From an uncultured Actinomycetes bacterium (GTDB lineage Bacteria > Actinomycetota > Acidimicrobiia > Acidimicrobiales > JACCXE01): a stretch of DNA of 64,000 nucleotides. The notes under the pieces were generated by a model that searched no databases, was not told the DNA's origin, and was given only the letters and a program-made list of their open reading frames with translations. The DNA is taken from contig OY970363.1 in NCBI GenBank assembly GCA_963718605.1, positions 1,795,239 to 1,859,238 on the forward strand. The letters are read 5' to 3'. This document shows, piece by piece, positions 37,473 to 40,507 of the stretch; position 1 is the first letter of the stretch, and each line of letters starts with the position of its first letter. A program made the translations under genes and the position numbers.

Positions 37473-37811
37473 ATGAAACTCGTTATCGCAATCGTGAAGC
37501 CCTTCAAGGTGGACGAGGTCAAGACGGAACTGTTGGCCCTCGGGATCCACGGCATGACCGTGTCCGAGGCACAAGGGTTCGGTCGTCAACGCGGCCACAC
37601 CGAGGTGTACCGAGGCAAGGAGTACGAGATCGACTTCGTGCCCAAGGTGCGCATCGAGGTGCTGGTCGACGACACCGATGAACATGTGGTCGTGGCGAAG
37701 ATCCTCGAGACCGCCAAGACCGGTCAGATTGGCGACGGCAAGGTGTGGGTTATGCCCGTCGAGTCGCTGTATCGCATCCGCACTGGGGAGGCGGGTGAGG
37801 ACGCGCTTTAA
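37473..37811 (+). CDS. glnK: P-II nitrogen regulatory protein, copy 1
   Basis: 112 aa: [16 protein letters not shown]...[29 protein letters not shown]. The T-loop Tyr51 is present. It lies 11 nt downstream of amt. Confidence 0.93.
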
Positions 37812-40507
37812 CTGCGCGCGGGCTCGTAGACCTGGCGGAACCAACTCCGCCGCGACGTCACACCGCTCGCAAGGAACTCGCGAATGGTGGACTCGTGGTC
37901 AGGGCTGAGTTTGTGGCCGTTCAGGTCCACGAGTTCGAAGCGGTCGTCGGCGGTGCCGTCAACCGCGCCAATGGTCGCAGACACAACCTCGACATCCGAC
38001 GCGGCGAAGGCCGTAGCGACGGTGTGCAGTAAGCCGGGCTGGTCTGGCGCGGCGATGTCACAGGCCGTGTGCCACGGTGAGGCCGCTTGATCGAAGTCCA
38101 GGGTGAACGCGTCGAGCGGTGAACTCACGAGCGGAGTCGCAAAGCTTGCTCGTATGTGGGTGGCAATTGTCTCGGTGTCGGGCGTGGGCCCGGTCACCCT
38201 GAAGGCCTCGAGCGCGACCCCGTCGGGCCACGTGGCAACAACGGCCTCCGAGACTGACAGCTGGTGACTTACGAGGACGCCGGTGACATGTGCCAGCAGG
38301 CCGCGGCGGTCGCGCGCCGCCACATCGAGTGCCCAGGACCCACCGAGTTCAACGGCGCGCACGCGCACCTCGTCGCGCGTTACCGGCCGTCGCAAGAGTT
38401 CAGCTTGACGAGCCAAGGCTGAGGCCGGTTGCCGCAAGACGTACGCACGTGGTGCCGACTCGACGCGGGCCGCGGCCTCGCCCTCAAGGACGGTCAGCGC
38501 CTCCTGCTTTCGGTCGTCGATCACGTCGCGCGCGTACGCACCGGTGAGCCCGTCGTCACCCAGCGCTTCCTGGACCAGCCGGTAGAGCTCTTCGACGCGC
38601 GTCAACTGCCAACGCTCGTTCTCGGCGTTGTGCAGCATCGTCAGCACGTACAGCGCGCGAGCCCGTTCGGGCGTCTCAAGGTGTGAGGCGATCGCGAGCA
38701 CCTTCTCTTGGTCGAAGGCTGCGGCGCGAAGGGCGCCGGCCCACAACAAGTCACTGTCGGCTACTAGTGCGACAACCGCGTTCTGCGCTTCGGCGCTGAT
38801 GCCGAGTTCGGTAACTACGGCGCGCGCCGAGGCCTTGCTGTCGCGCTCGGAGTCGAGCGCGTCGGCGAGCAACAGGCCAAGGATCAATCGCGCCGGCTCG
38901 AGTAGCTGTTGCGCGGCGAGAGCGACCGGGTCGTCACCGTCGAGACGGCGGAGCCGCTCGACGTCGAAGAAGCGGTACCGCGCTAGGGGATCGATTGTGC
39001 GAGCGTCGTCGCGTCGGTGCGCGATCGCGTTGTGGAGCGTGGGCGACACGCCCTCCAACACGCCGACTACGTCGAGGAACCGCCACGACCGGGCGTTTCC
39101 GCGCTCGATCACGTCGAGAAAGTCGTCGAACAGATCGACGTTCCATCGCTTCACCGCTTCAGGCACCGCGGTGAGCCACGACGACAAGAGCTGGCCGGGT
39201 TCGCGGTACGCCACGCCGACAGCGGCGGACAACCCAATTTGCACCGCATCGGCCGCGGGCGGTCGAGCCGCGAGTTCTATCTCGTCATTGGTTGTACGCA
39301 GCCACCCCCCGGGAGGCTGCGGCTCCCCGCTCTCGTCGATCTCCAGAACCGAACCCGGGCCCATCCGCGTGTAGCGAAGCTTGAGCAGTTGTGGGGTGAC
39401 GAGCGTGGTGACGAGCACGACCAACAGGAGTGAGGCATACAAATCGTCGTCGAGTACGCCGGCGGCGCGTCCGAGCGTGGCAAAGATGAGGCCGACTTCA
39501 CCGCGAGGCAACATGCCAAGGCCGATGAGCATCTTGTCGCCGGGGCTGCCGATGGCGCCGAGCGGCGAAACGAGCTTGCCCACCGCTGCGACTAACAGCA
39601 GTACTGCCGCGTCGCGCAGAACCGCGGCGCGTGTGAACGCTCCGATTTCGGCGTCCACACCGATGAGCAAGAAGAACACGGGGATGAACAAGTGACCCAC
39701 GGGCGCCAGCTCGCGACGGATGCGCTCGGACTGGTCGCTGCGTGTAAGTGCGAGACCGGCGACGAAGGCGCCGACGATCGGTGCCAACCGCGCGGCGTCG
39801 GCGACGCGCGCGAACAACAACGTGAACGCAAACGCGATCGCTACGAGCGTGCCCGTCGAGCGCGAGATGCGGTGCACGAAGGCGAACAGCGGATTTGCCA
39901 CCCGCAGGCCGACACCGGCGCCGACCACCAGGAACGCGATCGCCACGCCGATGATGCCGAGGACCGAAAGCGGTGAGACCGAGCCTTCGGTAACAAGCCG
40001 AACGACGACGGTAAGTACGACCAGCCCCATCACGTCGTCGGCGACCGCGGCGCCGAGCACGATCCGAGCTTCAGTGGTAGCTAACGCCCGAAGATCGCCG
40101 AAGACGCGTGCGGTGATCCCGACGCTCGTGGCCGTCAGGGCCGCGCCGACAAAGAGCGATGTTTTCGACTCGAAGCCCATCGCTTGCATCGCGCCGAACC
40201 CGAGCGCCATCGGCACGACGACACCGACGGTCGCAACGAGCATCGAGGCTCGCCCCACCTTGCTGAGTTCGGCGAGGTCCATCTCCATGCCGACTTCGAG
40301 CAGCAGAAGAATGACGCCGAGCTCGCCCAGGGTGCGCAAGACCTCTTCGTTGTGACCGACGAGGCCGAGGGCGGATGGGCCGATGAGGATGCCGGCGACG
40401 ATCTCGCCGACGACGGCCGGTACGCCCACGCGCTCGGCGAGTTCGGCTGCCAGCTTCGCCGCGACGAGCACGACGAGAATGCTTGTGAGGATCTGCGCGA
40501 TGTCCAT
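37808..40507 (-). CDS. CPA2-type cation:proton antiporter fused to a GlnD-like C-terminal region (degenerate HD + two ACT domains; no nucleotidyltransferase domain)
   Basis: ATG 40507 comes after aagga. The N-terminal roughly 390 aa are polytopic Na_H_Exchanger-like ([18 protein letters not shown]). The C-terminal roughly 500 aa are colinear by eye with the glnD product of 43837..46125, including two ACT-like modules. See finding. Confidence 0.8.

Follow-up and report, generated by a model that had tools for sequence, protein, structure and literature searches.

Among the CPA2 cation:proton antiporters, NapA of Thermus thermophilus is an electrogenic Na+/H+ exchanger and KefC of Escherichia coli is a K+/H+ exchanger that carries a C-terminal RCK domain (PMC11150392). 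A pair of aspartates (DD) together with a salt-bridging lysine is the mark of the electrogenic Na+/H+ exchangers, whereas in the K+-selective and electroneutral KefC the DD is replaced by QD and Thr127 occupies the position at which NapA has a Val; the ligand-binding C-terminal cytoplasmic domain of KefC makes contact with the transporter and thereby inhibits transport (PMC11150392). Transport of K+ or NH4+ has been reported for further CPA2 members, an example being AmhT, which is mentioned in PMC9040632. GlnD is a PII uridylyl-/adenylyl-transferase in which a nucleotidyltransferase (NT) domain adds the nucleotide and an HD domain removes it, with glutamine regulating through a single site (PMC4285133). 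GlnD needs its ACT domains for the glutamine response (Zhang 2010, as cited in PMC11190351), and a GlnD-like ACT domain located on an unrelated amylase, AMA2, confers glutamine activation (PMC11190351). The gene considered here lies in a 64,000-nucleotide (nt) stretch of contig OY970363.1 (hereafter the window) from an uncultured Actinomycetes bacterium, and encodes a protein of 899 amino acids (aa) in which an antiporter domain of the NapA type is followed by a tail derived from GlnD. Its features are as follows.

37808 to 40507, minus strand: the whole fusion gene, 899 aa, a NapA-type CPA2 antiporter with a GlnD-derived tail (predicted).
39353 to 40507, minus strand: membrane transport domain, residues 1-385, with 13 predicted helices (PF00999, 2e-64).
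39308 to 39352, minus strand: linker of low confidence, residues ~386-400 (predicted local distance difference test score, pLDDT, <50 at residues 385-387).
38393 to 39307, minus strand: GlnD-like beta-hairpin and all-helical region with the pseudo-HD, residues ~401-705 (hhalign to GlnD 290-560).
38138 to 38368, minus strand: ACT domain 1, residues ~714-790, motif ARDRRGLLA...ATWPDG...F769 (Pfam ACT/ACT_4).
37820 to 38104, minus strand: ACT domain 2, residues ~802-896, after the family motif FDxxASPWHT (Pfam ACT, 3e-12).

The minus-strand open reading frame (ORF) extends from 37808 to 40558, and the ATG at 40507, which has the Shine-Dalgarno-like AAGGA ahead of it, gives the uninterrupted 899-aa product that had been proposed in a preliminary description of the locus, made by a model from the letters of the window. 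Full-length orthologues fall into more than 120 clusters of ~900 aa (56-80% identity, 98-100% query coverage), for which the database names are generic, being only "cation:proton antiporter" or "KefB". When the tail alone was used as the query, 167 representatives were detected at E <1e-30 among 1.8 billion, with identity down to ~30%, and many of these matches are again ~900 aa in length with the tail occupying residues 390-900. In the 82 related loci analysed by tblastn, 47 of which have enough flank for neighbour counts, the membrane domain and tail are found in one frame in ~78, from independent assemblies. Since the >120 orthologues align over 98-100% of its length, the fusion is not a frameshift or assembly artefact; joining of two genes by either route is so improbable that it can be ruled out, and no split of the gene into a separate antiporter and sensor is seen here. 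A scan of one genome per species located the family in at least 173 genomes. The 80 of these that were listed are metagenome-assembled genomes labelled Acidimicrobiia, Acidimicrobiales, Microthrixaceae, Iamiaceae, Aquihabitans or generic Actinomycetota, with three exceptions labelled Acidobacteria, Acidobacteriota and Bifidobacteriaceae. The taxonomic spread, about which the preliminary description had asked, is thus essentially all within Acidimicrobiia.

The membrane domain is, by its sequence, NapA-type rather than Kef-type. Pfam Na_H_Exchanger (PF00999) matches residues 17-373 with 218 bits against a gathering cut-off of 26.2, and the NCBIfam CPA2 subfamily model TIGR00932 matches over model positions 1-272 (E 5.6e-52) with 177 bits, under its trusted cut-off of 238.3. 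The closest solved relative is T. thermophilus NapA (E 9e-57 to 1.6e-57; PDB 4bwz, 5bz2 and 5bz3, residues 4-376 aligning at 1.6e-57), with KefC at just 4e-17 to 2e-18. The motifs ATSVG (126-130) and PRGEVG (334-339), together with D157, D158 and K311, are invariant across 79 aligned family members, and the three charged residues align with D156, D157 and K305 of NapA, namely the DD pair and its salt-bridge partner, the Lys of transmembrane helix 11 (TM-11). Indeed, the ion-site motifs of the two proteins are identical, including AAVxDDVxGL, the TM-11 Lys (GK) and PRGEVGLI. NapA differs in that it ends soon after the last helix, whereas the fusion has an extra 505-aa cytoplasmic domain. In this respect the general plan recalls that of the glutathione-gated K+/H+ systems KefC and KefB, where transport by a CPA2 protein is likewise gated by a ligand-binding cytoplasmic regulator at the C-terminus (PMC11150392). 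Unlike these proteins, to which the membrane similarity is only 1e-17 to 1e-18, the fusion has DD in place of QD, Val129 in place of Thr127, and a regulator derived from GlnD rather than RCK/TrkA. The KefB equivalog model gives 79 bits (cut-off 804) and that of KefC 74 bits (cut-off 752), Pfam detects no TrkA or RCK domain in the 899-aa protein, as had been noted previously, and no RCK-like gene, such as would correspond to the separate AmhM-type partner of AmhT-type antiporters, was seen beside the fusion in the window neighbourhood. A Kef-type antiporter with an RCK tail, considered as a candidate, was ruled out by the lack of an RCK match and by the presence of DD rather than QD; from the earlier designation "CPA2/Kef-type" only the first part can therefore be retained. 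Because of the DD pair, Lys311, Val129 and the NapA-identical core, exchange of Na+(Li+) for H+ is more likely than a valve for K+ or NH4+, and electrogenic Na+(Li+)/H+ exchange is the most economical, hence most likely, prediction for the fusion.

The tail was described earlier as colinear with the C-terminal two-thirds of GlnD, with an HD segment that has lost its metal ligands, two ACT-like modules and no nucleotidyltransferase domain, and each of these points is borne out. The Pfam scan recognized Na_H_Exchanger and two ACT domains, at about residues 727-760 and 820-869, with no match to HD (PF01966), NTP_transf_2 or GlnD_UR_UTase (PF08335). NCBIfam TIGR01693 (GlnD) aligns residues 527-881 with model positions 453-847 of 850 (E 1e-25), and since its score of 90 bits is far under the cut-off of 519 bits the tail is related to GlnD without being one. 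A pairwise alignment of the kind envisaged in the preliminary description is only partly informative: BLASTP against the window's own GlnD is significant over the ACT pair only (35% identity, 6e-14), and the colinearity extends much further in profile-profile comparison. When a 49-sequence fusion tail profile was aligned by hhalign with six Acidimicrobiia GlnDs, fusion residues ~380-886 were placed onto GlnD 272-762 (probability 100%, E 2e-52, 452 columns), such that the homology begins at GlnD residue 272. ACT1 is 35% identical to GlnD ACT1, and ACT2 aligns with GlnD ACT2 in both BLASTP and hhalign. In the family alignment D733, G736, W760 and F769 of ACT1, and D806, P811, F857, G864 and K866 of ACT2, are nearly invariant, and the GlnD-type D-x-x-G-L-L and a conserved Phe are retained in both domains. 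By contrast with GlnD, none of the 79 aligned relatives retains the HD histidines: L, Y or H stands at the first His position, the HD dyad has become [LVA][DE] (D in 57/79, E in 18/79), and GlnD H..TVD.H corresponds to RR.D...LDP....[WF]. The tail thus keeps the helical region, HD scaffold and two ACT domains of GlnD (TIGR01693) but has lost the HD metal ligands along with the NT and PF08335 domains, because of which it cannot modify or demodify PII; it is a folded GlnD remnant that is predicted to be catalytically dead.

Modelling of the tail alone with AlphaFold2 (AF2) from 75 sequences gave a pLDDT of 95.1 and a predicted template-modelling score (pTM) of 0.90, the model consisting of a small beta-hairpin, ~300 helical residues and two beta-alpha-beta-beta-alpha ACT units. 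The full-length model has a pLDDT of 89.8 and a pTM of 0.62, reflecting halves that are each confident and a mutual arrangement that is not. The best PDB fold match to tail residues ~1-300 (model mf6180216dcbe) was the Aquifex class II CCA/A-adding enzyme (3wfp, 3wfq, 3wfr and 3wfs; E 2e-4, ~280-300 columns, template-modelling score 0.36), which hints at a relationship between the helical region of GlnD and the class II nucleotidyltransferase neck and body. GlnD-type ACT domains have been reused as glutamine-responsive modules in plant ACR proteins and Chlamydomonas AMA2 (PMC11190351, PMC3173338). Those proteins have acquired the ACT part only, whereas the fusion tail also keeps the ~300-aa GlnD helical/pseudo-HD region and is located on a membrane transporter.

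The fusion is embedded in a cluster of nitrogen genes, in the order amt1 (+), glnK (+), fusion (-), amt2 (-), alpha/beta hydrolase (+), PII-2 (-) and glnD (+). The relevant neighbours are as follows.

36187 to 37461, plus strand: amt1, canonical AmtB-type, paired with glnK (Pfam 5.5e-122).
37473 to 37811, plus strand: glnK (PII), convergent with the fusion, stops overlapping (Pfam P-II, 1e-29).
40585 to 42180, minus strand: amt2, encoding an ammonium transporter (531 aa) that belongs to a distinct clade (Pfam Ammonium_transp, 1e-100).
42269 to 42287, minus strand: GlnR-box-like motif AGTTCACACAGCCGAAACG, ~90 nt upstream of amt2.
43361 to 43702, minus strand: second PII gene (PII-2), divergent from glnD (Pfam P-II, 9e-27).
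43770 to 43788, minus strand: second motif copy AGTTCACACTGCCGAAACG, in the divergent region between PII-2 and glnD.
43837 to 46125, plus strand: genuine GlnD, 762 aa, with NT, PF08335, HD and two ACT domains (NF002895, 761 bits; Pfam).

The partner that matters most is amt2. As described previously, the fusion is directly downstream of this gene on the same strand, with a gap of 77 nt, and the two are probably co-transcribed. Amt2 is 33% identical to Amt1, and among solved structures it comes nearest to the sensor Amts Ks-Amt5 (5.5e-69) and Sd-Amt1 (1e-55), AmtB being matched at 1e-30. The ammonium-receptor (AmR, cluster 2) signature has been defined as Q-X6-E-X15-N-X2-D-[FT]-X54-60-T-X2-[ST] (PMC11152129). 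Amt2-type orthologues share with the sensor Amts the Q, E and N of this N1/N2 signature (PMC11152129), but differ from them in the Asp, which is replaced by Ile (44) or Val (8) in 52/52, and in the lack of a fused transducer domain; the full receptor signature is therefore not present. The Amt1-type genes, including amt1, are without the Q/E/N signature altogether. A third Amt type with the complete receptor signature (Q..E..N..DF) was encountered in two related loci, L004 (4889-6169, minus strand) and L046 (785-2236, minus strand), the former heading an amt-PII-glnD cluster divergent from the fusion.

Across the related loci with enough flank, an Amt2-type gene is next to the fusion in 41/47. 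It lies directly upstream on the fusion's strand in 25 of these loci and upstream, but separated by a gap, in 5; 7 loci have it immediately downstream, also on that strand, and in the other 4 it is divergent. Such adjacency across three gene orders is hard to explain without functional coupling. The question raised earlier, whether the fusion always neighbours amt and PII genes, can accordingly be answered with "nearly always" for the Amt2 type, in view of these 41 loci, and in the negative for PII, which is found within 8 kb in just 11/47. The shared TTAA at 37808-37811, in which the stop codons of glnK and the fusion overlap, is present as originally noted; the PII adjacency that it represents is not a conserved feature of the family. 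By our own rough estimate, 11/47 is nevertheless far above the ~1% expected by chance for a 4-Mb genome with two to three PII genes. PII is adjacent to the Amt1-type gene in each of the eight loci that carry one, and follows directly after it except in L040, whereas the Amt2-type genes in the fetched loci are without the usual downstream glnK. The conserved partner of the fusion is therefore a distinct Amt clade and not glnK. The arrangement resembles amtB-glnK in being a conserved two-gene unit of an ammonium transporter and a nitrogen-sensing protein, and is unlike it in that the antiporter fusion takes the place of GlnK as the partner.

A gene for a Trans_reg_C winged-helix homologue constitutes a further element of these neighbourhoods, being detected in ~50 of ~86 loci, in forms of 170-190 aa and 74-98 aa. 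Its position varies, with the gene preceding the fusion by 22-50 nt, coming shortly before Amt2, or lying just downstream; no such homologue is present in the window. A subgroup of proteins corresponds to the tail without the membrane domain. These tail-only proteins (490-517 aa) form a genuine subgroup, found on contigs of up to 936 kb, some of them labelled Ilumatobacteraceae. Examples of both are given below.

L003 11279-11857, L085 484-1020, L088 7685-7981 and L084 4731-4985: winged-helix genes, with ~50 further loci.
L084 5001-6485, L086 8001-9491, L087 8001-9497 and L085 1093-2592: soluble tail-only paralogues, 494-499 aa, beside PII or GlnD.

In L087 the soluble tail gene directly follows a small winged-helix gene with a 4-nt overlap (translationally coupled), and three syntenic loci have the order winged-helix gene, tail, then PII or GlnD. 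In L088 the same neighbourhood contains the winged-helix gene, the full fusion, Amt, PII, GlnD, PII and Amt. The membrane domain and the Amt gene are thus present or absent together, while the tail persists. Two further cases deserve mention. P0336 (344 aa, on a contig of 400 kb) has P-II and ACT Pfam domains and is 79% identical to the end of a soluble tail, and is either a tail-PII read-through or a true fusion. In L087, positions 9494-11912, directly after the soluble tail gene, encode GlnD as two ORFs (614 aa with PF08335 and HD, and 206 aa with ACT), possibly a frameshift or a split GlnD.

We favour, with a probability of about 0.5, the reading in which a NapA-type antiporter carries the tail as a tethered regulator that responds to glutamine, and the pair works with Amt2. 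In this scheme the ACT pair would bind glutamine, the cell's signal of nitrogen status, as in GlnD, and the resulting change would be relayed by the helices of the pseudo-HD bundle, and then by the flexible linker, to the transporter dimer at its cytoplasmic face. Much as RCK domains gate KefC, the tail would there permit or prevent the elevator motion of the core that carries the ion. The fusion would act as a unit with the probably co-transcribed Amt2-type transporter, which lacks a GlnK of its own, such that proton/sodium exchange tracks ammonium uptake and assimilation, and it would probably link ion and pH balance to nitrogen status. Glutamine gating of the transporter is plausible in view of the kept ACT motifs, the intact NapA-like residues and the flexible linker, and the Amt2 linkage and the co-loss of membrane domain and Amt gene lend further support. 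Glutamine as the ligand, the sign of regulation, the transported cation and the physiological purpose are the parts of the scheme that we infer; one coherent purpose, by our own reasoning, could be proton import that counters alkalinization by NH3 under nitrogen excess. Several points weigh against the scheme. AF2 gives no confident interface between tail and membrane domain, the pTM falling from 0.90 to 0.62 as described above. For GlnD-type ACT domains it has yet to be settled which residues contact glutamine (PMC11190351), and GlnD of Acidimicrobiia may or may not itself respond to glutamine. Since assimilation of NH4+ already releases H+, the import of H+ via a Na+/H+ antiporter would, as we reason, be of no obvious help, and the physiological logic is to that extent incomplete. 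Lastly, because tail-only paralogues persist next to PII, GlnD and a coupled winged-helix gene, the tail has a function that does not need the transporter, and it may signal to partners besides it.

This last point is accommodated if the tail belongs to a signalling hub, in which it docks or reads PII or adenylylated PII through the pseudo-HD site, a winged-helix regulator, or the cytoplasmic face of Amt2, with the antiporter serving as an anchor or second input and the output being control of Amt2 or of transcription. The direct succession of 74-98 aa Trans_reg_C gene, tail-only gene and PII or GlnD on long contigs argues for such a role, as do the tight linkage of the winged-helix homologue in ~50 of ~86 loci, the excess of PII genes within 8 kb, the absence of the usual glnK downstream of Amt2-type genes, and the fact that the HD domain of GlnD acts on modified PII (PMC4285133). 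The invariance of all the catalytic residues of the antiporter indicates, on the other hand, that transport is under selection and that the domain is not a mere anchor, and the window itself is devoid of the winged-helix homologue; we regard the hub as a tentative and rather unlikely alternative. A related and still more doubtful proposal combines features of both, with the tail as a portable nitrogen receiver that operates independently of GlnK, its ACT domains reading glutamine and its dead HD pocket reading PII modification, and with the antiporter, Amt2 and the winged-helix factor as outputs.

Of the two remaining explanations, one retains glutamine gating and alters the cargo. The preliminary description envisaged a release valve for ammonium or K+, the cations reported for Bacillus AmhT, and in that case surplus ammonium imported by Amt2 would be expelled at high glutamine. 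Such a valve has a simple physiological logic and would suit the tight, conserved pairing with an ammonium transporter that lacks its own GlnK plug, and PMC9040632 cites the CPA2 member AmhT as an NH4+/H+ antiporter, the single and secondary mention of AmhT that the literature searches returned. The ion-binding core, however, is residue for residue that of the Na+/Li+ antiporter NapA and has neither the QD motif nor the Thr by which KefC is adapted to K+ (PMC11150392), an ion near in size to NH4+. We therefore consider Na+(Li+)/H+ exchange the better supported and the valve, in the form first proposed, unlikely. The other explanation discards sensing, the tail being a ligand-independent structural or oligomerization domain, a fossil of GlnD. 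Consistent with this, its HD domain is dead and no ligand site is demonstrable in silico, but the tail is conserved family-wide down to ~30% identity with ACT-loop residues nearly invariant, it survives as a stand-alone protein in nitrogen-gene neighbourhoods, and the high confidence of its AF2 fold relies on strong covariation among the aligned sequences, all of which make a fossil quite improbable. The glutamine-gated antiporter acting together with Amt2 remains our preferred reading.

Other features of the window can be noted briefly. PII-2 (43361-43702, minus strand), which was not listed in the preliminary description, encodes ~113 aa from an internal Met and has a Tyr in the T-loop motif GSEY. 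The window GlnD is recognized by NCBIfam NF002895 at 761 bits, over the cut-off, and by Pfam GlnD_UR_UTase, HD and ACT (twice). The two motif copies, AGTTCACAC[A/T]GCCGAAACG, are 19/20 identical over a 20-nt block (the 19-nt core plus one flanking base) and resemble the actinobacterial GlnR box (TnAC-n6-GAAAC), which suggests co-regulation of amt2 and the PII-2/glnD region. A similar GTTCAC-n6-GAAAC was found upstream of only ~9/52 Amt2 orthologues, and the motif was dropped as a feature of the family.

A second CPA2 gene (34842-36017, minus strand; 391 aa, Pfam 4.6e-42) is divergent from amt1, so that both Amt genes in the window adjoin a CPA2 gene. Its product is 27% identical to the fusion membrane domain and carries ED in place of the fusion's DD, and no orthologue of it was found in the related loci. 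A 412-aa ORF (33638-34876, minus strand) overlaps the end of this gene; it has an Arg-rich composition and looks non-coding, and neither it nor the alternative ORFs there have a Pfam match. The possibility that the two represent a split paralogue of the fusion was rejected, as the ORF has no similarity to the tail and no Pfam match and the CPA2 protein is only 27% identical.

In full-text literature searches, no CPA2 antiporter bearing an ACT tail or a tail derived from GlnD was found described, in keeping with the earlier suggestion that the architecture is uncharacterized. Ligand-binding regulators at the C-terminus of a CPA2 transporter are known in principle; what is new is the identity of the regulator, its origin from GlnD, the partnership with Amt2 and the existence of soluble paralogues. 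If the favoured reading is correct, an amino-acid sensor derived from GlnD would represent a new mode of gating in CPA2, to be compared with the nucleotide- and glutathione-binding RCK of KefC, and sodium/proton or pH homeostasis would be tied directly to nitrogen status. The partnership of a whole Amt clade with the fusion, and not with GlnK, raises the question of how ammonium uptake is restrained without a PII plug. No solved structure of GlnD was found in the PDB, and a dead, independently folding tail of ~500 aa that is also soluble in nature could ease the study of glutamine sensing by GlnD-type ACT domains. With at least 173 species-level genomes, the family is common among soil, water and sludge Acidimicrobiia, such that its biology is not marginal, and if the tail does prove to be a portable receiver it would constitute a previously unrecognized branch of bacterial nitrogen signalling in this class.

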